Shown piece by piece: positions 19,216-64,000 of a stretch of DNA of 64,000 nt (within the stretch, counting starts at the first letter, position 1; each line of letters opens with the position of its first letter). The notes beneath the pieces are model-generated. The model saw only the letters and a list, made by a program, of their open reading frames with translations, did no database searches and was not told the origin of the DNA. The position numbers and the translations under genes are program-made. The stretch lies in IMG/VR virus record IMGVR_UViG_3300042307_001070; one strand, 5' to 3'. This stretch comes from an uncultured virus (IMG/VR IMGVR_UViG_3300042307_001070). Lineage: Duplodnaviria > Heunggongvirae > Uroviricota > Caudoviricetes.

Positions 19216-20409
19216 ATGAAAGAGAAATTTTTACCTTGGTTTTTATTATTTTGTGCTTTAGGGTTGTCAGGGACTGCAGCCTATTATAGTGTTGTCGGAC
19301 TATCAATAGTGTTTGTTGGTGTGGCATTACCCGTTATTATTATGGGAACGTTCCTTGAGATATCAAAGATTGCAATTGCAACATACCTACACGATAAGTG
19401 GAAAGAAACGTATGGTGTGTTAAAGATTTATTTAACCATTGCCCTTGTTACATTATCACTAATAACTTCACTTGGTATATATGGGCTTTTAAGTACTGGA
19501 TTTCAGGGAAACATTGCAAAACTAGAAATCAATGAGAAACAAGTTAAAAATGTTGAGGTCAAAAAGAAACGTTTTGAGGAGATAAAGACCGAATTAACGA
19601 AAGAAAAAACCACACTTGATGGTGATATTACAAAATTAAGAGATGGTCTCTCTAATAACACCACAACACAGTCTGTTGATCGTAAGACAGGTCAATTAAT
19701 CACAAAGGAAAATAATAACAATAGAAAATCATTTGAGTTACAACTAACCCAAGCACAAATAAGAAGAGACACTATAACTAAAAGAATAGATAATATGAAT
19801 GATAGTATAACTAAACTAGATGTTGATATTTTAAATATGGAGTCAGAAGAAATATCAGGAAGTGAGTTAGGTGCTTTAAAATATGTTAGCGAATTACTTG
19901 ATTGGGACGTTAAACGAACCGCAAATCTTTTTATTTTAATTCTGATATTTGTGTTTGATCCATTGGCAATCACATTAGTTATTGCAACAAACCAAGCGTT
20001 TAAAGGAAAAAGAAAAGACAAAAATTCAGAGAGGGACAACAATGTCCCTAACAAAGAAGAGACCATACATGATACAATACATGATACCATACATGATACC
20101 ATACATGATGAGGTTGAAGTAACCGCACAAGATAGTAACCAAGTAAGTGACCAAGTACCGACCAGGTATCGACCAAGTACCGACCAAGTAAAAAGGGTAT
20201 GGGAAAAGGTTAAAAAATTAAAAGAAGAAGGAAAACAAACGAAGGATTACACTCCACAAGAAATGGAGGATTACTTTGAAAGGGAGGATCTGATTGATTT
20301 ACAAAAAATAGAAGAAAAACCAATAGAAGAACCTAAAGTTCAAGTTGAACCTAAACGACTTTCATATTTAAATAGAGATGGTGGATCTTTCAGAATCAAT
20401 AGAATTTAA
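19216..20409 (+). CDS. Membrane protein with long coiled coil
   Basis: Three N-terminal TM segments, coiled coil, TM with FDPLA, IHDT tandem repeat. Confidence 0.7.
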   Translation: MKEKFLPWFLLFCALGLSGTAAYYSVVGLSIVFVGVALPVIIMGTFLEISKIAIATYLHDKWKETYGVLKIYLTIALVTLSLITSLGIYGLLSTGFQGNIAKLEINEKQVKNVEVKKKRFEEIKTELTKEKTTLDGDITKLRDGLSNNTTTQSVDRKTGQLITKENNNNRKSFELQLTQAQIRRDTITKRIDNMNDSITKLDVDILNMESEEISGSELGALKYVSELLDWDVKRTANLFILILIFVFDPLAITLVIATNQAFKGKRKDKNSERDNNVPNKEETIHDTIHDTIHDTIHDEVEVTAQDSNQVSDQVPTRYRPSTDQVKRVWEKVKKLKEEGKQTKDYTPQEMEDYFEREDLIDLQKIEEKPIEEPKVQVEPKRLSYLNRDGGSFRINRI

Positions 20410-20974
20410 ATCAGAAGGGATATCTGAAAAAAAAACACAAATAATACTTTCCGAAACTAAACGGTCAGCTAAAAATTACATAAACTCTTTAAAATATAGG
20501 TATAACAGTAAAAACCCTTATATACCAAACTATGTAATTGATAAAGAAGGTGAAATATATAAGATTTTAGACGATAAAAAGTATTCAAAATACATGGATA
20601 GTGAGGTAGTTAATAAACGGGCCGTTATTGTTGTTTTAGAAAATTACGGTTGGTTATTAAAAAATGCACTTGAAAACACATATGTAAATTATGTTGGTGA
20701 TATTTATAAAAAAGACATATTTAAAAAAAAGTGGAGAGACCACGATTATTGGGATAAATACGAAGAAAAACAAATAAACGTGTTATCCGAACTTTTAAGT
20801 GACATATGTAATAAAATGAATATTGAAAAGGAATGTATTGGAACTAATGTTAGATATAATGAAGTCACAAACTTTAAGGGAATTGTTTCCAAAAGTAACT
20901 ATGATTTCATCTATAAAGACTTAAATCCATCGTTTAACTTTGAATTATTAACAAAACTTTTAAAAAATGAGTAA
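20378..20974 (+). CDS. Amidase_2-like protein, catalytic residues apparently lost
   Basis: IILSET, PNYVIDKEGEI, YEEKQINVLSELL, GIVSKSNY..KDLNP follow the amidase_2 scaffold without the Zn-binding His. Confidence 0.55.
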   Translation: MVDLSESIEFKSEGISEKKTQIILSETKRSAKNYINSLKYRYNSKNPYIPNYVIDKEGEIYKILDDKKYSKYMDSEVVNKRAVIVVLENYGWLLKNALENTYVNYVGDIYKKDIFKKKWRDHDYWDKYEEKQINVLSELLSDICNKMNIEKECIGTNVRYNEVTNFKGIVSKSNYDFIYKDLNPSFNFELLTKLLKNE

Positions 20975-21533
20975 TCAGTACGAAGAAATTAAAAACCTAT
21001 TAAAGAAAACGAGACTTCTTAAAGAACAAGCCGAGAGAATAAACATGGCTAAAAGTATCGAAAATAATATATCTGACGATGAACAAGAATATGAAACCGC
21101 TGACGGTGAAAATGAGGTTGAAGATGTTGTTAAAAAAGATAAAAGCAAATCTTATAGAATTTCGGGAGGACTTTTAACTTTACACGGTAAAGAAAAAAAG
21201 GACATAGAACTTACAAGTGACGAAAAAACAGCATACCAAGAAACTATGGATGAGTTTGTTTCTGAAGTTTCTGATTTGTCTGACTTTGGTGTTCTAAACA
21301 TGTATCCAAATGAAGTACAATGGAGTGGTAAGGTAATTGATTTTGATTTGGAGTTCTTCTTTTCTATCGGAGAAGAGAATGGTGTTTACATCAACGGAGA
21401 TATGATAAAATTAGATGAGAAACTAACAGAACTGGTATCCAAATTAACAAGTTACTATGAAAAGTTTAAATCCAAATGGGCTAAAGTAATCGTCGGAAGA
21501 AAGAAAACTCAATTTAAAAAAGAAGAAGAATGA
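20967..21533 (+). CDS. Hypothetical protein
   Basis: Overlapping operonic ORF. Confidence 0.6.
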   Translation: MSNQYEEIKNLLKKTRLLKEQAERINMAKSIENNISDDEQEYETADGENEVEDVVKKDKSKSYRISGGLLTLHGKEKKDIELTSDEKTAYQETMDEFVSEVSDLSDFGVLNMYPNEVQWSGKVIDFDLEFFFSIGEENGVYINGDMIKLDEKLTELVSKLTSYYEKFKSKWAKVIVGRKKTQFKKEEE

Positions 21534-21883
21534 AAAACTTTGTAAAAAAATATTTTAAAGAAATTTTATTGGTAATTATGGTAATCGCCTTAATTTTTCT
21601 TTTAATTAACATTTTCACACCAAAACCAGAAATGTCTGAGTTGGATAAATATAAGTTAGATCAGTTAAATAAAGACATTCATTTAATTATTGAAAATCAA
21701 AAAAAATTAGATAAACAAATTGAAAGTTATAAAAAGGAACTATCACACATAGACTCAACGATTGCCAAAGTACAAAATCAAAAAACAATAATAAAAGAAT
21801 ATTATAAAGAAAAAGGTGAAAAAATTTCAGGTATGAAACCATCTGAGATTGATAGTCTTTTTCATAAACGATATAACTATTAA
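21530..21883 (+). CDS. N-terminal TM + coiled-coil protein (spanin-like?)
   Basis: Single N-terminal TM helix then coiled coil. Confidence 0.45.
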   Translation: MKNFVKKYFKEILLVIMVIALIFLLINIFTPKPEMSELDKYKLDQLNKDIHLIIENQKKLDKQIESYKKELSHIDSTIAKVQNQKTIIKEYYKEKGEKISGMKPSEIDSLFHKRYNY

Positions 21884-21884
21884 A

Positions 21885-22292
21885 ATGAAAAAAATATTAA
21901 TTATCCTTTTGTTTTTACCTATGATGGTATTATCACAAAAAGTAAAAACAGACACCACCGTTATTTGTATACCTTACAAGGCAGCTAAACAAATGGCTTT
22001 AGACCTTAACCGTTTAGACTCTTTAACTGCCGTACATAATTTAACAGTAACCGAATTATCACAGACACAAAACAAAGTTACTTTTCAAGATAAGATTATT
22101 TCCATTATGGAGCAAAAAGAAAATAACTATGAATTACAAATAGAAAAAGAAAAAGAAAAATTTGTAATAGTTGAGGGGCAAAATGAAGATTTAAGAAACC
22201 AAGTTAAAAAACTAAAAACAAAAAATAGTTTTATTGAAATTATAGGAGGAGCGTTGCTTACGACATTAACAATATTCTCAATTCTTAAATAA
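21885..22292 (+). CDS. Signal peptide + coiled coil + C-terminal TM protein
   Basis: MKKILIILLFLPMMVLSQ signal; hydrophobic C-terminus. Confidence 0.5.
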   Translation: MKKILIILLFLPMMVLSQKVKTDTTVICIPYKAAKQMALDLNRLDSLTAVHNLTVTELSQTQNKVTFQDKIISIMEQKENNYELQIEKEKEKFVIVEGQNEDLRNQVKKLKTKNSFIEIIGGALLTTLTIFSILK

Positions 22293-47417: not shown

Positions 47418-47915
47418 ATGAAAAGAATAATTAGACTTACAGAATCAGATTTAGCAAGAATTGTTAGACGTGTGATTAAAGAAAACGAAGAAGACTTTGA
47501 CACACAAAGTTTTTTTGATGCTCAGTTTATAATTTTAAAAGAGTTTTTAACAAATTTGGGTTATATTTACATGGATGGTGAAAAACCACCTTATTCTAAA
47601 AAAGGAAGATTAGGTGTTTTTGAAAAAATTTCACATACGGAATCCGGCGAAAATGAACCTGGAACAAGTGGGTTAAAAGATGACTATTTATTTAGGGTAA
47701 AAATAGAGTTGGATTATAATATTTACGGAACAAGAGAAAATAAGTCGTCTATTTCTATATCTAAGTTTACATATGGTGATTCTGATTGGAAAGTTTTAGT
47801 CAATTCAAATGTACCTTGGGTATTAGGTAAACCTAATTATACAAAAATATTACAAGAGTTCAAAAAAATGGGTGAAGAAGCGCCAGGACTTTATTGTGAA
47901 TTTAATAAATGTTAA
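47418..47915 (+). CDS. RLTESDL-module protein
   Basis: [22 protein letters not shown]. Confidence 0.75.
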
Positions 47916-47925
47916 TAAAAAAATA

Positions 47926-48684
47926 ATGAAAAGAATAATAAGACTAACAGAATCGGATTTAGCAAGAATTGTTAGACGTGTGATTAAAGAAAACGAATAT
48001 GAAGAAGATGAATATGATGAAGACGACGACGACGACGAAGATTATAAAGCATTTATAGATTCATATAGTGATGAACCTATAAATACCCCTAAAACACGAA
48101 TGGCCGATCCTAATGAACCGTACGATTCAATTGGAGGACATTCCGTAAACGATTTAAAAAGAGCGTTTAATAAGACGAAGAGGGAAGATGAAGAGTGGGG
48201 ACAAACAGACGCAGGTAAACATCAATCACAGGACTTAATTAATATGGCGATAGATATATTAGAAGACGAATACGGTTATGATGGGGATGAACTTAACGAA
48301 ATGAATGAGATGGATATTGTTGAATCTTTATATGAAGAGGGCGAAGACGATTTGGCATCACAAATAGAATACCTATTAGATGAAGAAGGTATTGGTGAAA
48401 GAAGTGGAGGTGAATTAGGTGAAGGTTTTGATGATTTTATTACCAAAAAAAGATTCAAAGACTACAACCCAAGAGAATTTAGAACAATTAAAAAAGATGA
48501 TTACAAAAGAAATTTAAGACCAGGAATGAGAGACTTTGAAGGAACGGAGTTAATGGGTGCTGAAGAAGAACCATTTGACGACTATAAAGATCTAAGTATG
48601 TATAACCCATATTATGGTACAAATGATGATGATTTTGATGATGATTTTGAAGAGGAAGACTTTGATGATGAAGAATTTATATAA
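47926..48684 (+). CDS. RLTESDL-module protein, very acidic
   Basis: Start at ATG 47926; identical N-terminal module. Confidence 0.75.
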
Positions 48685-48690
48685 TTAAAA

Positions 48691-51048
48691 ATGATAGTTA
48701 ATTTAAAAGAAAGCCAGATAGATGGTTTAATTAAATTGGTTCTTGCGGAAGAAAGAACCAAAAAAGGTTTAATTGAGCAGTGGGAAAGGGCACCTGCGGG
48801 AAAACCAAAAGATGCGTTAGGGTATTGGAAAATATTATTTACAAACCTTACCGCTGGTGGAATTGGTGTTAAATGGCAAGTACCTAACGATCCGGTAAAA
48901 TCTACTTTTATGTATTGGGGTGGTTGGATCATATGGAAAGACATAAAAAAGAATGGGGGTTATCCTGTGTCTTTTGGTACGGGAAAAGATGGTCTAACCT
49001 TTGCTTTTTACCCTAAAGGTAAATATGCCGGTCAGCCACTTAACAATATTGAATTGATGGCTTCTAAAAAAAATATACCGGTTTTTAAATTAGACAAGTA
49101 CGCAAAAAAATCAACAAAAGAAGTTACCGATGAGTTTAAAAAACTATTAGGAAATAGTAAAATAAAAAATTTTGTTGGTAATATAGGTAAAGAATTATCC
49201 GCCGTTTGGTCAGATCTATATACTAAACTAAATCAATACAAACCTAGTACAGTAAAGTTAGTTAAATCGAATAGTGGAGACGCATATTTTTTAACCAATT
49301 ATTTTGGAAGCACTCAACTTGGTTTTTACACGAATGGCGATATTAAATTATATGATGGAACTCGTTGGACAAGTATTGGTAAATGGGACTCATCAATGCA
49401 AAAAGACGGTAAACTATCAGGTGGATGGTTAAGTCGAAATAACGGTGAAAAAGTTTCTTTGGGTCCTGCACTTAATGAACCAAATTTAATGCCAATCTCT
49501 TGGATGTTAGCGTCTAGTTGGAATAAAAAATCTACAACAACAACAACAAAAAGTAAAAATTATCCATACGAGGAATTAAAAAATAATCCGACACCGGAAT
49601 TTATTGCTAAAGTAATAAAAGAATCAAGAGGTACTGTTCAAGATAATGAGGCTTGGGCTGAGTCCGCATTTATGGCAATTAAAAATATGGCTATGTATGA
49701 TAAAGTCGCTAAAGCTTTAGGTACCGACCCATATAAATTTGTTAAATCGTTTATTACCGTATCAATTAAGTATCACGTTCAGGCTATACAGGTATCATAC
49801 TTACAATTACTTAATGATGAAAAACCAATTACTGTAACTAAATTTTCCACACAATGTCCATTAACTTTTACTGAACAAAATCCTGGTGGTGGTAAAACAA
49901 ATAAAAGTGGACAAGTACCTTACGCTCTTTGGAATACAAATAAAGATCCATATTTAAAGGTAGTGGGTGCCTTTAGTGAATATAAAGGAGTAGTGCCTGG
50001 AGATTTTGGATGGAAACTTAATAATAATATTTACCCATACCCTACTTTATATAGTAAATCATGTACGCTCGGAACAAATCTTAACGAGTCTAAGATTTAC
50101 GAACAGGTAAATTTTGATAGATTCAATAAATCACCCCAACTGCAGACAATTGATATTCGCCAGGTGAATCCTTCGGCAAGAAAGGTTAGTATTAATACTA
50201 AAAATCAAAAAAAGATGATTGAGTTTAATAATGCGTTGGTACAACAAAATAAATTAATACCACAATATTGTCAAAAACCATTAAGGAGGGAGAAACGAGT
50301 AGCAAGAGGTGGTAATGACCCTAAAATTATTGATGCGTATTTAAGTATGTATACCCTATGTAAGGATTTTGGAGGTTTATGGGTACGTGGAGCCAACACC
50401 GCAAACTTTACATGTGGATGTAGAGATATGAATGCTATTGATTTAAATGTTGCGGTTGATGATGGTAGTGGATTCAAAAATCGTATGGGTCAAACAATAT
50501 CACAATCAGTAGATAAAACACAAACATCAAAAAATTGGTCGGACGCGGAAAACCAACAGTTGGCACTTAATGCACTTGCATTGGCATCGGCATTTATACC
50601 TGTTGTTGGACCTGCAATATCTGCAGGTATTAGTCTTGCAGGGGCTTATGGTCAATATAGACAAGGTAATAATAAAGCCGCGGCTATTGAATTATTTTTT
50701 GCCGTTTTACCGTTTATAGGGAAAATACCTGGTATGGCCAAAGTAAGTAAAACAATGGCTGGAAGTCTAAAGGTAAAATTAGTTAGAGGTGGTACTATGA
50801 CATTGACAGAATTTAACACAGTAAAACAAATAATTGCGTACGATACTTACATTTCCTCAAAAGTTGGACAATATTTAAAAAAACAAGCGATGAGTGACGT
50901 GTCAAAAACATTATTAACAACCGCAGTTAAAAAGGTTGAACAAAAGGTGGTTGGATTGGCCGGTACACCAACCTATGGAGATCTTAAAAAGAAAGCCACA
51001 GGAGAAACCTTGGCGGTAACTACAGGTGTTGAGGATAAAAACACATAA
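48691..51048 (+). CDS. Large protein with C-terminal hydrophobic helical hairpin
   Basis: LKESQI module; AFIPVVGPAISAGISLAGA..LPFIGK segment. Confidence 0.65.
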   Translation: MIVNLKESQIDGLIKLVLAEERTKKGLIEQWERAPAGKPKDALGYWKILFTNLTAGGIGVKWQVPNDPVKSTFMYWGGWIIWKDIKKNGGYPVSFGTGKDGLTFAFYPKGKYAGQPLNNIELMASKKNIPVFKLDKYAKKSTKEVTDEFKKLLGNSKIKNFVGNIGKELSAVWSDLYTKLNQYKPSTVKLVKSNSGDAYFLTNYFGSTQLGFYTNGDIKLYDGTRWTSIGKWDSSMQKDGKLSGGWLSRNNGEKVSLGPALNEPNLMPISWMLASSWNKKSTTTTTKSKNYPYEELKNNPTPEFIAKVIKESRGTVQDNEAWAESAFMAIKNMAMYDKVAKALGTDPYKFVKSFITVSIKYHVQAIQVSYLQLLNDEKPITVTKFSTQCPLTFTEQNPGGGKTNKSGQVPYALWNTNKDPYLKVVGAFSEYKGVVPGDFGWKLNNNIYPYPTLYSKSCTLGTNLNESKIYEQVNFDRFNKSPQLQTIDIRQVNPSARKVSINTKNQKKMIEFNNALVQQNKLIPQYCQKPLRREKRVARGGNDPKIIDAYLSMYTLCKDFGGLWVRGANTANFTCGCRDMNAIDLNVAVDDGSGFKNRMGQTISQSVDKTQTSKNWSDAENQQLALNALALASAFIPVVGPAISAGISLAGAYGQYRQGNNKAAAIELFFAVLPFIGKIPGMAKVSKTMAGSLKVKLVRGGTMTLTEFNTVKQIIAYDTYISSKVGQYLKKQAMSDVSKTLLTTAVKKVEQKVVGLAGTPTYGDLKKKATGETLAVTTGVEDKNT

Positions 51049-51073
51049 ATAAAAAATTAAGATATTTATTAAA

Positions 51074-51484
51074 ATGAAAAAAATTATTAGACTAACAGAA
51101 TCCGATTTAGCAAGAATTGTTAAAATGGTTATTTTTGAAACGTCTATGACAAAAGAACAAGTTAAAAGTTCAATATCTAATTTTATTAGTTCTTGTGTTA
51201 AAAATATGAAAGAACTTGATAATATTATGAGAGCAAGTGGTTATAGTGCTATTGCGATATTTTTAGGTGTGTGTAGTTTTTTAACTGTTGAAATTCCTGG
51301 AATCGCATTGATGTTCGGAGCATCCGCAATTAATTTTGGTACACAAGCATATAAGGAAATAAGTGGAATATACACATCACTAAAAACAGAAGAAAAAAAA
51401 TCACAATTTAAAAATAAATGTAATAATGTTTTTACTTGTGTATCTAATAAAATAGAAAACCAAGGGTTGTTAGATTTGTTATAA
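51074..51484 (+). CDS. RLTESDL-module protein with hydrophobic segment
   Basis: [22 protein letters not shown]. Confidence 0.7.
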   Translation: MKKIIRLTESDLARIVKMVIFETSMTKEQVKSSISNFISSCVKNMKELDNIMRASGYSAIAIFLGVCSFLTVEIPGIALMFGASAINFGTQAYKEISGIYTSLKTEEKKSQFKNKCNNVFTCVSNKIENQGLLDLL

Positions 51485-51504
51485 TAAAAAATAAAATAAA
51501 TAAA

Positions 51505-51855
51505 ATGAAAAAAATTATTAGACTTACAGAATCCGATTTAGCAAGAATTGTTAGACGGGTTATTAGAGAAGAAGAAAATAAACTACCTTGTGATACTTGG
51601 GAAGGTGCGATAAAATTCATTAAAGATAATCCATTAGGTGTACAGGGGTTTAAATTTGAAAGATTTGTTGAGGGTATTAAAACCAACCCAATGGTTTTAA
51701 AACACCCAACAATAAAAGGTGAGTTACAAATCGAAAAAGATAATACATGGAACTTATTCGATATCAAAGGAAAAAGTACCAACTCAGGTAAATGGTCATG
51801 CAAATCAATGCCAGGTGGAGGAACTCGAATTAGTCTTGGTGTTGATTTAAAATAA
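51505..51855 (+). CDS. RLTESDL-module protein
   Basis: [23 protein letters not shown]. Confidence 0.7.
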   Translation: MKKIIRLTESDLARIVRRVIREEENKLPCDTWEGAIKFIKDNPLGVQGFKFERFVEGIKTNPMVLKHPTIKGELQIEKDNTWNLFDIKGKSTNSGKWSCKSMPGGGTRISLGVDLK

Positions 51856-55910: not shown

Positions 55911-56180
55911 ATGAATAGATTAACAGAAAGAGATTTGTCAAGAATTGTTAGACAAGTTATTAAAGAAGACAAAGAAGATAAGAAAAAAACTATGAATGAC
56001 ATACCTGATAGTTTCTTTAAAAGTTTTTTATCAAAAACTAGTAGCATAATGACAAGCGAGGAGTTTTCTGATATTGAATCAATTTTAGGAAAAAGAGTTG
56101 GATCAAATGGTGAAGGTATGGGTGATGTTTTTGAAAAAATATTTATGGAAGCAAGAACAAGAAGAAGAAAAAACGATTAA
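55911..56180 (+). CDS. RLTExDL-module protein
   Basis: MNRLTERDLSRIVRQVIKE. Confidence 0.7.
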   Translation: MNRLTERDLSRIVRQVIKEDKEDKKKTMNDIPDSFFKSFLSKTSSIMTSEEFSDIESILGKRVGSNGEGMGDVFEKIFMEARTRRRKND

Positions 56181-56181
56181 T

Positions 56182-56625
56182 ATGAAAAAAATAATAAGAC
56201 TTACAGAATCAGATTTAACAAGGATAGTAAAAAAGGCGATTAACGAATCCAAATCACTAACTAAAAAACAATTGGATCAGATGGTTAAAGATAGTCTAAT
56301 CACCCCAAGAGATAGTGAAATCTTAAAACTATATTATATTGATAATATGAGTTTTGATGATATAGCTAATAAGTTTGATAGAACCGTATCAAGTACTAAA
56401 CAACTAATTAAAAAGTTATATAATGATATTTCAGATGTTGATGGGTTAAAAAATAAAAGACAAAGTAAAGATGACTCACAAAAAGAAAACCATATAAATA
56501 AAGTTAAAAAAGAAATGAAAAGGGTTAAATTTTATCTTGATAATGGTTATTTAACTAAAAATGAAATTATGTCTTTATTTAAAGAAGTTTTAAATGGTGA
56601 AGAAAAATTAACAACATTAAGATAA
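56182..56625 (+). CDS. RLTESDL-module protein with sigma region 4-like HTH
   Basis: ITPRDSEILKLYYIDNMSFDDIANKFDRTVSSTKQ. Confidence 0.7.
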   Translation: MKKIIRLTESDLTRIVKKAINESKSLTKKQLDQMVKDSLITPRDSEILKLYYIDNMSFDDIANKFDRTVSSTKQLIKKLYNDISDVDGLKNKRQSKDDSQKENHINKVKKEMKRVKFYLDNGYLTKNEIMSLFKEVLNGEEKLTTLR

Positions 56626-56629
56626 ATTT

Positions 56630-57009
56630 TTAAATAAAACTTGACACTTTTGAAAAGAGTGAATATTTATAATTAAAATAATATTATGAGAAAAACTATA
56701 AAATTAACGGAAGGTGATTTATCACGTATTGTTAGACGAGTTATTAAAGAAGATAAAGAAGAAGATGAAATGGAAGGTATGGGTATGTCCATTACAGTAA
56801 AAGATATATTTGAGGCGGTTATAGATGCTCTTCACGATCTTGGTACGTATGATGATGCATCTATGGGTGAAAAGGCAATGAATTTGGCTAAAATGATTAT
56901 GAGTAACATGCAAGATGACTTGGCTTACGTTACTGAGAATTATGAGGATCAACTTTATGATATTCTTGGTGATGAAAATTATTAAATAAAACTTGACACT
57001 TTTGAAAAG
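56630..57009 (+). repeat. 28-nt direct repeat flanking gene 56686..56985
   Basis: TTAAATAAAACTTGACACTTTTGAAAAG at 56630-56657 and 56982-57009. Confidence 0.85.
56686..56985 (+). CDS. KLTEGDL-module protein
   Basis: [22 protein letters not shown]. Confidence 0.7.
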   Translation: MRKTIKLTEGDLSRIVRRVIKEDKEEDEMEGMGMSITVKDIFEAVIDALHDLGTYDDASMGEKAMNLAKMIMSNMQDDLAYVTENYEDQLYDILGDENY

Positions 57010-59332: not shown

Positions 59333-59371
59333 CACTTGACATTATTAAATTAATGTCTTATTATTATACAA

Positions 59372-59445
59372 AACCGGGTAGCTCAGCTGGTAGAGCAATC
59401 CTTTTTAAACAGGACGTGTCATTGGTTCAATCCCTTTCCCGGTTT
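59372..59445 (+). tRNA. Pseudo/atypical tRNA with 8-nt anticodon loop TTTTAAAC
   Basis: AACCGGG/CCCGGTT, canonical D-arm, weak T-stem; own TTGACA-N17-TATTAT promoter (59336-59364). Confidence 0.55.
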
Positions 59446-59469
59446 TTTTATTTATAAAATTAAAATATT

Positions 59470-59676: not shown

Positions 59677-59860
59677 TAATTTAATAGTATGATCCACTCA
59701 AGAGGAGTGTTGGAACGGAGTTTGTTAATCTATTTATAAAAAAAAAACACTATGGAAGTAATTATCGCATGTTTAGTACCGATCGCGTTGATAGGTATTA
59801 TGGTAGTATCTTATTTGACCTACAAGGGGAGATAAAAAAAGGGACCGAAGTCCCTTTATG

Positions 59861-60469
59861 TTATTTAATGTCTGTTGACTCTATTAGAGTATATGAAAAC
59901 TTGTTTCCGTGAATTTTAGATGCCTTCTTACATAAAGACATAAACACATCAAAGTCTTTTACTCTTTTAAATACTTGACAACCCTCACTCCAATTTTCAA
60001 CCCACTGTGAGTCTTGACCTGCTTTGTGGATGTTAATACCAAAAATACCAGTATCGGTTTTTGTTTCTTCAAAAATAAGATCTTTGTTTGCATCTCTCCA
60101 TACAGTTACATTTCCTAATCTTTGACAAAGAGCTTCATATTTTCCTTGATGTAAATCAATTTTCCATACACCTCTGTACTGACCCGGTACTAATCTTGCA
60201 ACACCATTTTTGTTATGGAATTGTTGAACACCCTTTTTACCTGGATCACATGTTGCCATCCAACAATAGTATTGCCAAGCACCTTTTTCATCTTTAAATG
60301 ATAATGTTAGATGATCGTCAAACACATTGGTCACTTTTTTATAAACCGCTGGTGACGTGTTTCTTACTCCTACGATATTCACATCGTAACTTTTGTTGTT
60401 TGCGTCTTCAAACCAAACATACCCTTTGGCTTTTACGGCAGCCTCAACCTGTTCTCTTGTGTAACTCAT
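59861..60469 (-). CDS. Putative peptidoglycan-active enzyme (YkuD/L,D-transpeptidase-like)
   Basis: FGINIH..WSEGCQV His/Cys motif. Confidence 0.6.
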   Translation of the reverse strand: MSYTREQVEAAVKAKGYVWFEDANNKSYDVNIVGVRNTSPAVYKKVTNVFDDHLTLSFKDEKGAWQYYCWMATCDPGKKGVQQFHNKNGVARLVPGQYRGVWKIDLHQGKYEALCQRLGNVTVWRDANKDLIFEETKTDTGIFGINIHKAGQDSQWVENWSEGCQVFKRVKDFDVFMSLCKKASKIHGNKFSYTLIESTDIK

Positions 60470-60547
60470 AATAATTAATTTTGATTATAAATATTGTGAT
60501 TTTTGAAAAGTAAATAGGTTTTTTAAGGTATTGTCATATTTATTAAT

Positions 60548-62167
60548 ATGAAATATCGTTTAAGAATAAAAATAACATTAGTTATCGCCGCTTTACTAAT
60601 GATTGCATTTATGTGTGTTAAAATTGCGGTTCTTATTGGGTTACGAGAATCTACAGAAACAACTAGATGGCTAGAATTTTTTGGGGTTATTTCTCTCATC
60701 CCTATATCTGCGTTATTAATTAAAGACTTTATCAATTCCACTAAAGATACTGTATCTAAAGAATCGGTGGATAAATTGGTAGAATTAAAACATTTCTTAG
60801 ATTCTTCTTCCATCATATCTAAAGCTGATGCAAAAGGAAAGATTACATACGTTAATCAAAAATTTACCGAAATCTCAGGTTATTCATTAGAAGATGTTCT
60901 TGGTAAAGACCACAATATTGTAAATTCTGGAACACACCCAAAAGAGTTTTGGTCTAATATGTATAAAACTGTTGTTGTGAATAAGGGTCTTTGGAATGAG
61001 GTTTGTGTCAATAGGGCAAAAGATGGAAGTCTTTATTATGTGGATACTTTTATTAAATGTAGTTTTGATGAAAACGGTAAATTGTTAGAGTTTATGTCAA
61101 TTCGTCAAGACTTAACTTCTTTAAAAAAGACTGAACAAGAAATATCAAATAGAATGAATGCGATTAACAGATCAAATGCCGTTATTGAATTTGATTTAGA
61201 TGGTAACATAAAATTTGCAAATGATTTATTTTTAAGTACTTTAGGTTATGATTCGCACGATGAACTTGTTGGAAAACATCATAGTATATTTGTTGAAGAT
61301 GTGGTAAAAGACTCTGAAGAATATTCAAACTTTTGGAAAACTTTAAAAGGTGGTCAATTCTTTATGGGTGAAATCATTAGAAAGAAAAAAAACGGATCTT
61401 TAATTTATCTCCAAGCGACATATAACCCCATCATAGGAACCGATGGGAAACCATATAGAGTAATGAAAATCGCCACTGACATCACCCAAAGTATTAATCA
61501 ACAAATGGAGATTGAAAAGAAAAATACCTATTTAGAGCATGCCGCAAAGATATTAAGACACGATATGCACTCTGGTATTAATACATATATGCCAAGAGGA
61601 TTAAGCTCTTTAGAACGAAGATTAACTCCTGAAGATATAAAAAATTTAAAAATAGAATCCCCACTTAGAATGATTAAAGAAGGTTTAAAACATTCTCAAA
61701 AAGTATATAAAGGGGTTTACGAATTTACCAATTTGGTTAAAAGAGATGTTGTTTTAAATAAAGCGGAATGTGATTTAAAATTAATCCTATCTGATTATCT
61801 ATCATCTACTGCATATATTAGTCAAGTTATTATAGATGAGTTACCAACTATTGAGGTAAACGAAGCACTATTTTGTACTGCGGTTGATAACTTGATTAGA
61901 AACGGTTTAAAGTATAATGATTCGGATTCTAAATTTGTTAAAATAACTTCAGACGAGAATTATGTTTACATTCAAGATAATGGTAGAGGAATCACACAAG
62001 AAGATTTTGATCACCTATGTAAACCATATACCAGAAAAGAAGGACAAAAAGAATCTGGCACTGGTTTGGGTTTAAATATTTGTGTTGCTATATTAGAAGA
62101 ACACGGGTTTAATATTACCTGTGAGAAAAATGAAATAGGAACAAAAATGAAAATAAAAATAAAATAA
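60548..62167 (+). CDS. Membrane-anchored PAS-PAS sensor histidine kinase
   Basis: Two N-terminal TMs; two PAS/PAC domains; H-box LRHDMHS; NLIRNGLKYN, DNGRGI, GTGLGL. Confidence 0.92.
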   Translation: MKYRLRIKITLVIAALLMIAFMCVKIAVLIGLRESTETTRWLEFFGVISLIPISALLIKDFINSTKDTVSKESVDKLVELKHFLDSSSIISKADAKGKITYVNQKFTEISGYSLEDVLGKDHNIVNSGTHPKEFWSNMYKTVVVNKGLWNEVCVNRAKDGSLYYVDTFIKCSFDENGKLLEFMSIRQDLTSLKKTEQEISNRMNAINRSNAVIEFDLDGNIKFANDLFLSTLGYDSHDELVGKHHSIFVEDVVKDSEEYSNFWKTLKGGQFFMGEIIRKKKNGSLIYLQATYNPIIGTDGKPYRVMKIATDITQSINQQMEIEKKNTYLEHAAKILRHDMHSGINTYMPRGLSSLERRLTPEDIKNLKIESPLRMIKEGLKHSQKVYKGVYEFTNLVKRDVVLNKAECDLKLILSDYLSSTAYISQVIIDELPTIEVNEALFCTAVDNLIRNGLKYNDSDSKFVKITSDENYVYIQDNGRGITQEDFDHLCKPYTRKEGQKESGTGLGLNICVAILEEHGFNITCEKNEIGTKMKIKIK

Positions 62168-62185
62168 AAAACAAAAAAGAAAAAA

Positions 62186-62623
62186 ATGATTGATTCAATT
62201 TTATTAGTAGATGATGAGGATTTATTCCATTTGGTATTTGAAGACGCTTGTTCGTTACTTGACATAAGTTTGTCTTTAAATGCGTTAAATAGTTCTGACG
62301 AGGCAGCAAAACTATTTCAAAAATGGTTCCAGGATGGTGACAATAATGATAAACCTGAATGTGTGTTTGTTGACTTAAACATAATTGGTAGTTCTTTTGA
62401 TGGTATAGAGTTAATTAGAAAAGTTAATTTTGAATATGGTAATCACGTAGTTATTGGTATCATATCATCATCAAACGAACCGGAAGAACAAGCAAAAGCG
62501 CTCCAGGCTGGTGCTCAATTCTGGATTATTAAATCAGATGATATTGAACCTCGTTTAGAAGAGTTTAGAAAAGATTATGACGGTTACAAAAATAGAACCT
62601 TACCTTTTAAAGTATATAAATGA
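62186..62623 (+). CDS. Single-domain response regulator (receiver)
   Basis: LLVDDE, FVDLN phosphoacceptor, ISSS, IIKS. Confidence 0.9.
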   Translation: MIDSILLVDDEDLFHLVFEDACSLLDISLSLNALNSSDEAAKLFQKWFQDGDNNDKPECVFVDLNIIGSSFDGIELIRKVNFEYGNHVVIGIISSSNEPEEQAKALQAGAQFWIIKSDDIEPRLEEFRKDYDGYKNRTLPFKVYK

Positions 62624-63294
62624 TAAAGTTAGATAAAAATAGTGAAGAAAAGTTAATAAACCTACTTGAGTCCAAGAACATTGGACTTGAGGGGAATGTT
62701 ATAAAGTTGATTGAATCGGACAACGATTCGTTTAAAGACTATTTAAAAAAATGTACGGATAAAGATAAAGATTCTAGACGAAAACGATTAGAGATTACTA
62801 AAAAAATACAATTACAAAACAATGAATTATCTGATCTAAACGAACAGAATCAAAAAATGATGGAAGATCTTCAGTCCACACTAAAAGAGGCTGAAGAACA
62901 AAAAGTAAAGATTGAAGGGCAAAACGGAGAGTTGATTAATTGGAGAGAAGAGAACGAAAAGATTCAACAGGAACTACAAAAGGAGATGATTAAATCTGAA
63001 ACCGCAAGAATACGTGCGGAGGAAGCAAAAACAAACGCAATCAACGATCTTGACATACTTCAAAAGAAAAACCAAACAGAACTTATATCAACAATTGTTA
63101 GAGTTGCTCTTTATATTATTGTTGGTGTTGGTATTGTTACTACCGGAGTTTATGTATTCACTCTTGTTATGGGTAAAGACACACAAGTTATTAGTGCTGC
63201 TTGGTCTAACATATTTGGTATACTTCTAACAAACGCATTCTCAATAGTAGGAACCATTATGGGTATTAAATACGCAACAGAAAATAAACAATAA
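62620..63294 (+). CDS. Coiled-coil protein with two C-terminal TM helices
   Basis: ATGA-coupled to the receiver gene; long coiled coil, two TMs. Confidence 0.7.
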   Translation: MIKLDKNSEEKLINLLESKNIGLEGNVIKLIESDNDSFKDYLKKCTDKDKDSRRKRLEITKKIQLQNNELSDLNEQNQKMMEDLQSTLKEAEEQKVKIEGQNGELINWREENEKIQQELQKEMIKSETARIRAEEAKTNAINDLDILQKKNQTELISTIVRVALYIIVGVGIVTTGVYVFTLVMGKDTQVISAAWSNIFGILLTNAFSIVGTIMGIKYATENKQ

Positions 63295-63305
63295 AACAAA
63301 AACGT

Positions 63306-64000
63306 ATGTTATTAAAAGTAGGATCTACAGGAGAAGATGTAAAAAAACTCCAAACAAAATTAGGATTAACCGCTGATGGTTCTTTTGGACCTAAAACTGA
63401 AACGGTGGTAAAAGAATGGCAAACTAAAAACGGATTAACCGCTGATGGTATTGTTGGTGACGGTACTTGGTCTAAAATGTTCGGGACAACTCAAGTAGTA
63501 AAAGAAGATGTTGTGATTACACCGGTAACAGGATTGAATATTGAAAAACTAAAAGGTCACATTCCTGATGTTGTTATCGCACAGATTCCTGAAACCGCAA
63601 AAAAATTTAATATCACAACTAACTTGAGACTTGCTCACTTCTTATCACAATGCGGTCACGAGTCAGGAGGTTTTAAGGCGGTATCAGAAAATTTAAATTA
63701 TTCTGCCGACGGATTAAAAAGAACGTTTGGTAAATACTTTCCTGGTAACTTGGCTGAATCATACGCAAAACAACCTGAAAAGATCGCATCAAGAGTCTAT
63801 GCTGACCGTATGAGTAACGGAAACGAAGCGTCAAAAGAAGGATATAAATTTAGAGGTAGAGGATACATCCAATTAACAGGTAAAGGAAACTACACCAGTT
63901 TTACAAAATTTATCGGTGAAGATTGTGTTGCGAACCCTGACTTAGTTGCAACTAAATACCCATTGGCATCTGCGGCATTTTTCTTTGACTCAAACAAACT
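63306..64000 (+). CDS. Endolysin: PG-binding domain + GH19 (3' partial, absent from track)
   Basis: LLKVGSTGEDVKKLQ..ADGSFGPKT..ADGIVGDGT; AHFLSQCGHESGGF..ENLNYS..FRGRGYIQLTG. Confidence 0.9.
   Translation, partial: MLLKVGSTGEDVKKLQTKLGLTADGSFGPKTETVVKEWQTKNGLTADGIVGDGTWSKMFGTTQVVKEDVVITPVTGLNIEKLKGHIPDVVIAQIPETAKKFNITTNLRLAHFLSQCGHESGGFKAVSENLNYSADGLKRTFGKYFPGNLAESYAKQPEKIASRVYADRMSNGNEASKEGYKFRGRGYIQLTGKGNYTSFTKFIGEDCVANPDLVATKYPLASAAFFFDSNK

Follow-up and report, generated by a model that had tools for sequence, protein, structure and literature searches.

Near the end of a 64,000-nucleotide stretch of DNA (hereafter the window) from an uncultured virus of the Caudoviricetes (IMG/VR record IMGVR_UViG_3300042307_001070), three consecutive genes on the + strand encode a sensor histidine kinase (60548..62167), a stand-alone receiver (62186..62623) and a coiled-coil protein with two transmembrane (TM) helices (62620..63294), which we call the hairpin protein, or the 62620 protein after its first base. 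Judged from sequence comparisons across many phages, this trio is a fixed unit under purifying selection and has turned up to date in virus-like DNA only. Its novelty lies in the output protein and in a pathway encoded entirely by the virus; the kinase and receiver have ordinary folds. A literature search, with most subscription journals and bioRxiv supplements lying outside it, found no description of a kinase-receiver-hairpin system. We tentatively propose that the block acts as a signal-gated membrane bundle, in effect a gated leak, that would tune the timing of host lysis; some role in lysis, of whatever kind, we consider fairly probable.

A virus-encoded kinase, receiver and membrane hairpin

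Scans with the hairpin protein gathered 60 close loci and, out of about 1100 stored IMG/VR stretches, 80 divergent loci, together with three GTDB contigs. The kinase and receiver lie directly upstream of the hairpin gene in 104 of the 105 loci with room for them, a count that leaves out loci cut near their start, a PAS fusion (L057) and three loci in which no hairpin open reading frame (ORF) was called (L060, L061 and L064). The trio was found in DNA ranging from 28% to 67% guanine plus cytosine (GC). Among 185,579 GTDB species genomes, a pattern-based scan, which could miss distant cellular forms, gave three matches, all on contigs of metagenome-assembled genomes (MAGs) with phage-like genes; these contigs (L062, L063 and L064), labelled Verrucomicrobia, Gemmatimonadota and Alphaproteobacteria, are probably binned phage DNA. 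ESM Atlas clusters were 96-100% viral. Neither the hairpin nor the receiver had a match in 50,697 GenBank phage records, and matches to the kinase core were limited to 43 weak, partial ones to HATPase, so that these records yielded no cultured model phage. Pairwise comparisons with the window, which are not mutually independent, gave ratios of nonsynonymous to synonymous substitution rates (dN/dS) of 0.13 for the kinase core, 0.06 for the receiver, 0.07 for the hairpin and 0.14 for the N-terminal domain (N-domain) of the hairpin protein.

The kinase, of 539 amino acids (aa), has two N-terminal TM helices followed by an MmoS/NifL/Aer-like PAS domain (PAS-A), a second PAS domain (PAS-B), an H-box and HATPase_c. 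Both PAS domains and HATPase_c (PF02518, 60 bits) exceed their Pfam cut-offs, and the Pfam HisKA profile gave no match to the protein. The phosphoacceptor position is H338, and the N, G1 and G2 boxes lie at residues 447-453, 477-481 and 504-509. An H-box was recovered in 149 of 159 distinct kinase sequences, the remainder being cut short or unmatched; 143 of these 149 share one private form, HDMHSGINTY, all 149 have DNGxG and 130 have GxGLGL. By its H, N, G1 and G2 boxes the window kinase fits class I histidine kinases, with autophosphorylation and phosphotransfer predicted. A phage histidine kinase is also encoded by the agr locus of phiCDHM1; as described in PMC3901668, that phage lacks a response regulator and is presumed to signal via its host. 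In the window's phage the kinase, the receiver and the likely target are all phage genes.

The sensors attached to this core are freely exchanged. Among 138 distinct kinases with a start codon, 38 carry PAS, 26 PAS-PAS, 24 GAF-PAS, 14 GAF-PAS-PAS and 36 neither, the last group including periplasmic sensors and second kinases. For the PAS-A/PAS-B pair of the window, the best solved relatives are MmoS (3ewk), NifL (2gj3) and Aer (8dik), with E values from 2e-28 to 9e-14. These PAS sensors bind flavin adenine dinucleotide (FAD), and the affinity of PAS-A to them probably points to flavin redox or energy sensing. Nothing points to a LOV photoreceptor: NCRFLQ, the LOV cysteine motif, occurs in 0 of 112 PAS kinases. 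Directly upstream of many kinases, including kinases with no soluble sensor, lies a gene for a Cys-Pro membrane protein of 62-66 aa with weak YgaP-like_TM/DUF4395 matches (e.g. L135:5132-5317), a possible accessory redox sensor. In five loci (L026, L030, L037, L053 and L062) a single receiver is accompanied by two kinases; the second kinase begins with a signal-peptide-like segment and likely has a periplasmic domain, and a likely secreted coiled-coil protein is often encoded between the paired kinases.

The receiver (145 aa) matches PF00072 above its cut-off (33.7 bits) and has no output domain. Residues D9, D10, D63, S94 and K116 are invariant in 90 of 90 diverse homologues, consistent with the acidic pocket, phospho-Asp, Ser/Thr switch and Lys of a single-domain response regulator. 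Its best natural match in the PDB is 3ilh. Like single-domain receivers of the CheY/Rcp1 type, it would use His-Asp chemistry and, having no output domain, must act by binding a partner; unlike them, it belongs to a relay that is wholly virus-encoded, its likely partner is a membrane hairpin not described before, and one-component equivalents exist. The cREC domain of jumbo phages is likewise a receiver fold in large phages, described in the passages on it in PMC7824862 as never linked to a histidine kinase, whereas the present receiver has its PF00072 match and the kinase association counted above.

The start of the hairpin gene overlaps the stop codon of the receiver gene in the sequence ATGA. 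The protein has an N-terminal knob (residues 1-36), a long helix (36-184) that runs into TM1, a 4-residue turn and a near-invariant TM2 (189-221), with hydrophobic stretches at about 152-186 and 190-219. Its AlphaFold2 model (predicted local distance difference test, pLDDT, 87; predicted template-modelling score, pTM, 0.35) shows the same plan, a small knob, a helix of ~150 residues continuing into TM1, the short turn and a final helix. In TM1 only one face is conserved and the opposite face varies; in TM2 conservation extends around the whole helix, which bears a small or polar face made of G200, T204, N205, S208, G211, T212 and G215. Such all-round conservation would fit the inner helix of an oligomer or a tight interface with a partner. 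The protein matched no known family, and a fold search of the model found nothing in the PDB at E≤0.001 and one uncharacterised phage homologue in BFVD. Spanin identity was rejected, the predicted inter-helix loop having only 4 residues. The closest architectural likeness is to the CorA/Mrs2 channels, which share with the hairpin a cytoplasmic head, a stalk helix into TM1, a short loop, TM2, a basic tail and, as proposed here for the hairpin, gating by a lever. In those 2-TM-GxN channels a GMN motif ends TM1; the hairpin lacks GMN (its loop consensus is GKDTQ), has a much smaller head and a conserved helix that is TM2, and gave no fold match to them.

What the hairpin does may be read from its fused forms. 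In a profile search that yielded 250 representatives, the two ends of the hairpin protein were seen to recombine. In other phages the hairpin is fused to PAS, PAS-PAS or GAF domains: the fused PAS-A is 72% identical to that of the window kinase (a singleton on a short contig) and the fused PAS-B 49%, and the GAF of the GAF-hairpin fusion (7 members) is 62% identical to that of a relative's kinase. Kinase and receiver are absent from 80 of 80 PAS-PAS-hairpin loci, and in five PAS-PAS-hairpin genomes, three of them at least 90% complete, the hairpin is present and the receiver absent in all five. Thus, the kinases' own sensors are joined straight to the hairpin in phages without a receiver, which makes the hairpin the likely output. 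Elsewhere the N-domain occurs in fusions to HisKA-HATPase, one of which is named as from a Bacteroidota MAG, and so occupies the input position; the genomic context of these fusions was not found in metagenome or viral scans. Together these arrangements suggest that the N-domain serves for input and belongs with the receiver, the hairpin being the output common to both forms.

A predicted complex of the receiver with the N-domain hints that the two may bind. It scored 0.36 against 0.00 for the best control, with runs agreeing in at least 96% of contacts and a partner pLDDT of at least 86; the same mark was attained by 116 of the 157 solved pairs and by 2 of the 215 mismatched pairs, but those that attained it with scores ≤0.60 were only 18 solved pairs and both mismatched ones.

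The original prediction, made by a model from the letters of the window, had named a PAS-PAS histidine kinase with intact H, N and G boxes, a receiver with no output domain, and a coiled-coil/2-TM protein translationally coupled to the receiver, and these identifications stand; every ORF that it named was found intact where it had been placed. Its further suggestion, that the receiver acts on the membrane protein, gains from the sensor fusions, which make the hairpin a likely output, and draws weaker help from the predicted complex.

A few loci carry additional genes in or near the trio. A bacteriorhodopsin-like gene (PF01036, E 4e-12; L134:6412-6990) lies between the receiver and hairpin genes of one locus, and the multi-TM/coiled-coil gene that adjoins it fills the same place in L113, L139, L143 and L144. 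In the first of these loci, 2.7 kilobases (kb) past the hairpin gene, a separate PAS/coiled-coil gene is followed by a coiled-coil/TM gene (L134:10336-11185).

Lysis genes around the trio

The trio is enriched beside unrelated families of cell-wall enzymes far above background. Pfam annotation covered 229 neighbour and control proteins (of the 262 clusters, some short or shadow ORFs were omitted); profiles were then built for the cell-wall enzymes and holins seen near the trio and used to score every locus. Within 2 kb of the trio, a cell-wall enzyme is present in 86 of 133 full-length loci, in 48 of the 78 loci with 2-kb flanks on both sides and in 32 of 49 clusters at 90% identity. Because the profiles derive from the scored loci, held-out loci from an independent N-domain query were tested as well; an enzyme stood within 2 kb in 32 of 62 new loci, or in 22 of 45 when distinct proteins are counted, and in 15 of the 27 new loci that have full flanks. 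With the same profiles, the background was 25 of 384, 20 of 345, 19 of 327 and 13 of 215 genes in four relatives (5.8-6.5%), and in the window's own fragment 19 of 113 genes had a cell-wall-enzyme neighbour. The association falls off with distance: 142 flanks of at least 5 kb contained an enzyme at 0-2 kb in 68 cases and at 3-5 kb in 2. GH19, Amidase_2, Peptidase_M15, phage lysozyme, DUF5675, glucosaminidase and L,D-transpeptidase (LDT)-like enzymes all occur as partners, on either side of the trio, and their types are interleaved on a tree made by a quick method, with a midpoint root for drawing only. Neighbouring holins belong to families 4_1 and 10. The fused form keeps similar company, with a cell-wall enzyme within 2 kb in 69 of 80 PAS-PAS-hairpin loci and in 44 of the 50 with full flanks. 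The lysis-cassette setting, for which synteny across related phages had been proposed as the check, is therefore supported by enrichment beside unrelated lysins; it is not obligatory, about 40% of loci being unlinked.

In the window, the partner is an endolysin with PG_binding_1 and GH19 domains (63306..64000, +; 274 aa), as had been predicted, whose gene starts 11 nucleotides (nt) past the hairpin gene. It is cut by the window end and complete at 64130 in contig G000, the 73,405-base virus record of which the window is bases 1-64000. Its catalytic glutamates are E119 and E128, and the motif HE[ST]x7EN is found in 61 of 63 homologues. Beyond the window, the contig continues with a 284-aa gene of no assigned function (64140-64994, +) and a Phage_holin_10 holin (65030-65197, +; PF23987, 63 bits against a cut-off of 27), 0.9 kb past GH19. 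From the kinase to the holin, the + strand has no called terminator, and we therefore infer a single operon.

The kinase-receiver-hairpin block is optional, swappable and dispensable. The hairpin is absent from five of five relatives that are 96-100% complete, and the same search was positive in hairpin-bearing genomes. In one relative (L371), flanks 91-97% identical to the window's genome enclose a single peptidoglycan (PG)-binding amidase gene in place of contig bases 60515-64992, that is, the trio, GH19 and the 284-aa gene. In another (L386), a 92-aa TM/coiled-coil gene of no known family sits at the trio's place between the LDT-like gene and GH19. When loci were anchored on a 1-TM GAF-like gene found beyond the holin (39 distinct loci with 5 kb upstream), holin_10 was present in 34, GH19 in 13 and the hairpin in 9. 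The 62620 protein is thus not the phage's essential holin, one of the two roles first suggested for it: it has no holin-family match in Pfam, PHROGs or NCBIfam, the phage has its own Phage_holin_10 gene in the operon, and five near-complete relatives do without it.

Proposed mechanism and its alternatives

In the mechanism we favour, the membrane-anchored kinase would read a cytoplasmic cue through PAS-A late in infection, probably flavin redox or energy state, and would then phosphorylate Asp63 of the receiver. The receiver would dock onto the N-terminal knob of the 62620 protein, and the long helix would relay the change to the hairpin, in which TM2 likely forms the core of a homo-oligomer that has a polar stripe. 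The oligomer would open or close a small leak, and phosphorylation could either hasten or delay lysis. Holins trigger prematurely when proton-motive force is lost, and a gated leak would thus speed up or restrain a holin of any kind. Since the same hairpin recurs next to unrelated holins and endolysins, an antiholin matched to one holin is disfavoured, and a mode of action that does not depend on the holin, for instance a gated leak, is favoured. Put more broadly, hundreds of large aquatic phages may carry a virus-specific, signal-gated hairpin, a new class of effector wired either to a phosphorelay or to PAS/GAF domains, that sets lysis by the redox, energy or envelope state of the host, whichever holin is used; we offer this as a plausible conjecture. 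Lysis time sets burst size and carbon release in lakes and seas, and the known form of adjustable lysis control is the antiholin that reacts to superinfection. A phage-owned His-Asp relay with swappable sensors at the membrane would, if real, be a different kind of viral decision-making. The system is common, given about 1100 stored IMG/VR stretches, and the one-gene PAS-PAS-hairpin, together with natural pairs of relatives with and without the block, makes it directly testable in laboratory bacteria.

Several observations weigh against this proposal. On the sensing side, PAS-A has Tyr at the position of a conserved Trp in NifL and MmoS, which we take to stack on the flavin, in 32 of 32 matched sequences (112 PAS kinases examined), so that FAD binding is not assured; compared with the FAD-PAS sensors of MmoS, NifL and Aer, its nearest solved relatives, the pair in the window thus differs at this residue and also in its output. 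Many kinases have a GAF domain, a periplasmic sensor or no soluble sensor at all, and therefore no single cue is common to all. On the output side, the hairpin protein has no homologue of known function and no fold match, and the idea of a pore comes from conservation only. The lysin link is also incomplete: 30 of 78 loci, and 12 of the 27 held out, had no detected lysin within 2 kb (about 40%), and at 70% clustering only about 11.5 of 21 lineages are enzyme-linked. Neither the deepest branches at the midpoint root (L063, L066, L070, L071, L073 and L097) nor the three GTDB contigs have an enzyme nearby (for the former, within 2 kb), as scored with profiles that cover only the enzyme families seen near the trio. 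Two related genomes (G002 and G005) keep GH19 about 55 kb from the trio. Finally, the lysis region, whose genes have a promoter motif in common, is a hotspot of gene swapping, and late membrane genes could gather there for other reasons.

This last point leads to the alternative that survives best, although we think it somewhat unlikely: that the relay runs a late membrane function other than lysis, such as the binding of a conserved membrane complex of the host, by which superinfection might be blocked, motility or secretion stopped, or membrane energy managed, and that it is found beside lysis genes only because both kinds are late membrane genes of the hotspot. The 40% of loci with no nearby lysin, deep lineages included, speak for it, as do the TATTTAT motif ahead of many unrelated genes and the insertion of YceI, rhodopsin-like and YgaP-like membrane genes into the block; the all-round invariance of TM2 would also fit a conserved host partner. 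However, the hosts probably vary widely, as judged by the 28-67% GC range, which fits poorly with one conserved partner. Moreover, both architectures are mostly only a few genes removed from lysins of several non-homologous families, to either side, and in the L371 exchange the block is replaced together with the endolysin.

A direct antiholin, a brake that would bind the phage holin in the membrane and be released or tightened by the relay, was the other role first suggested for the 62620 protein, and we regard it as distinctly unlikely. It shares the trio-lysin synteny with the gated leak, a separate holin is present in the block, and of 48 lysin-linked loci, 16 have a Pfam holin within 3 kb, a number that rises to 29 when two small 2-TM families are included; antiholins are also dispensable, as the hairpin gene is. 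Antiholins are usually holin-specific, however, and here a near-invariant hairpin stands next to holins of unrelated families, a poor fit to such specificity. In the related record G006, the trio remains next to GH19 at a distance of about 35 kb from holin_10. The best-known precedent is T4 lysis inhibition, in which, according to the sections on it in PMC11413866, antiholins RI and RIII bind directly and act on holin T, with superinfection as the trigger. That system and the block, whose role is proposed here from its genes, would both be phage-encoded, signal-responsive accessory controls of timing at the membrane step. T4 lysis inhibition has no kinase, receiver or PAS domain, unlike the block, and no sequence or fold link to its components was found, the hairpin having no significant PDB or Pfam match to T, RI or RIII.

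Signal flow in the opposite direction, with the hairpin sensing membrane state, the N-domain modulating (e.g. dephosphorylating) the receiver, and the real receiver target lying elsewhere in host or phage, would account for the stronger conservation of the receiver (mean column identity 80%, against 50% in its partner) and for the surface that the receiver keeps invariant, on helices 1 and 5 and on the C-terminal tail. We nonetheless hold it to be highly unlikely, since PAS-PAS-hairpin proteins have no other output in genomes that lack the receiver, so that the hairpin must be the output there, and since the N-domain sits at the input end of HisKA kinases. Recent capture of a host two-component operon, inert or cross-talking with host regulators, is suggested by the bacterial folds of kinase and receiver and by the N-domain in a Bacteroidota kinase, yet is exceedingly improbable, and in its inert version largely refuted, given only three matches, all phage-like, in 185,579 GTDB species genomes, Atlas clusters that are 96-100% viral, dN/dS of 0.06-0.18 and one private H-box in 143 of 149 kinases.

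Source DNA and flanking features

The window is a contig of a large lake phage. Its GC content is 27-40% per 2-kb bin, and 63 of 91 proteins are common to this phage and a complete 304-kb record (G006), with a median identity of 53%. Twenty lake-water runs from 20 studies hold 86-96% of the window's words, and contigs from four runs cover all 30 bins of the stretch; recovered from so many runs and contigs, it is not an assembly artefact. There was no RNA run among the runs listed as carrying the stretch. ARAGORN called 18 tRNAs in the window, and one call, at 59371-59446 just ahead of the 59470 ORF, has a 4-base anticodon (ttaa).

Ribosomal protein bS21 is encoded by four of five related records tested and also occurs in freshwater myoviruses predicted to infect Bacteroidetes (Chen et al., 2022; PMC9723584), from which we infer a Bacteroidota host for the window's phage. 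The word 'kinase' occurs 0 times in the main text of that paper; in its table S6 a GAF histidine kinase and a PAS protein, one of each, appear with automatic annotation and no comment, and these may or may not belong to the present family.

On the other side of the kinase, a divergent gene (59861..60469, - strand) encodes a likely peptidoglycan enzyme of 202 aa, LDT-like, with a His148...Ser161-x-Gly-Cys164 motif and matches to PHROG 3000 and 33083 ('endolysin'). The His...Ser-x-Gly-Cys motif, presumably the catalytic motif of YkuD L,D-transpeptidases, is found in 36 of 36 homologues, in invariant alignment columns. The original description of a divergently transcribed YkuD-like enzyme thus holds for the gene and its catalytic-type motif; as neither Pfam nor PDB sequences gave a match, it is the motif by itself that carries the name. 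HHalign of this family against three DUF5675 proteins gave no match either. In other phages the domain is fused to PG-binding domains and, at G005:109276-111381 (L272), to a gp5-like baseplate hub; the gp5 hub of T4 carries lysozyme. A terminator-like hairpin, by consensus match only, closes the divergent gene (59838..59857, both strands).

Another terminator-like hairpin (contig 65217-65239) follows the holin and precedes the 1-TM GAF-like gene (contig 65270-65878), so named from its GAF-named Atlas clusters; contig bases 64140-65878 correspond to L001:6141-7879. This gene is a constant neighbour of holin_10 (34 of 39 loci). The model of its protein has a pLDDT of 44, and basic residues after the TM helix suggest a cytoplasmic domain, in contrast to the periplasmic domain of T in T4. 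Homology to T was not supported, with no significant PDB or Pfam match.

Both transcription directions begin, as predicted, at a TATTTAT promoter-like motif, on the + strand at 60537..60543, 4 nt ahead of the kinase ATG and present in 21 of 25 distinct upstream sequences of relatives, and on the - strand at 60487..60493, 17 nt ahead of the divergent gene. The motif is barely enriched window-wide (66 vs. 51.3 ± 7.3) and stands just ahead of the start codons of 23 of 115 ORFs, against 4.8 in shuffles (maximum 14 in 1000), and is therefore a general phage motif, not one specific to this locus. It appears to be promoter-like, with late timing suggested by the genes it precedes. T4-type late promoters have TATAAATA on the sense strand ahead of late genes; that sequence was not matched on the sense strand here, where the motif is TATTTAT, which resembles the reverse complement of the T4 late promoter core. 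Most copies lie 4-6 nt or 14-18 nt ahead of ATG, and the short-spaced class may give leaderless mRNAs. A sigma-70 promoter scan was at chance level (26 vs. 35).

Elsewhere in the window, otherwise unlike proteins share one N-terminal leader of 16 letters (window 6048, 47418-51855 and 55911-56985; contig 72008-73075), which is possibly a capsid-targeting signal; a different repeated leader occurs in L063. Two adjoining genes at 21530-22292 encode a TM/coiled-coil protein, with weak matches to Rz-like spanin PHROGs, and a signal-peptide/coiled-coil protein. With the nearby Amidase_2 gene (20378-20974), this pair possibly makes up a second, distant lysis cluster.

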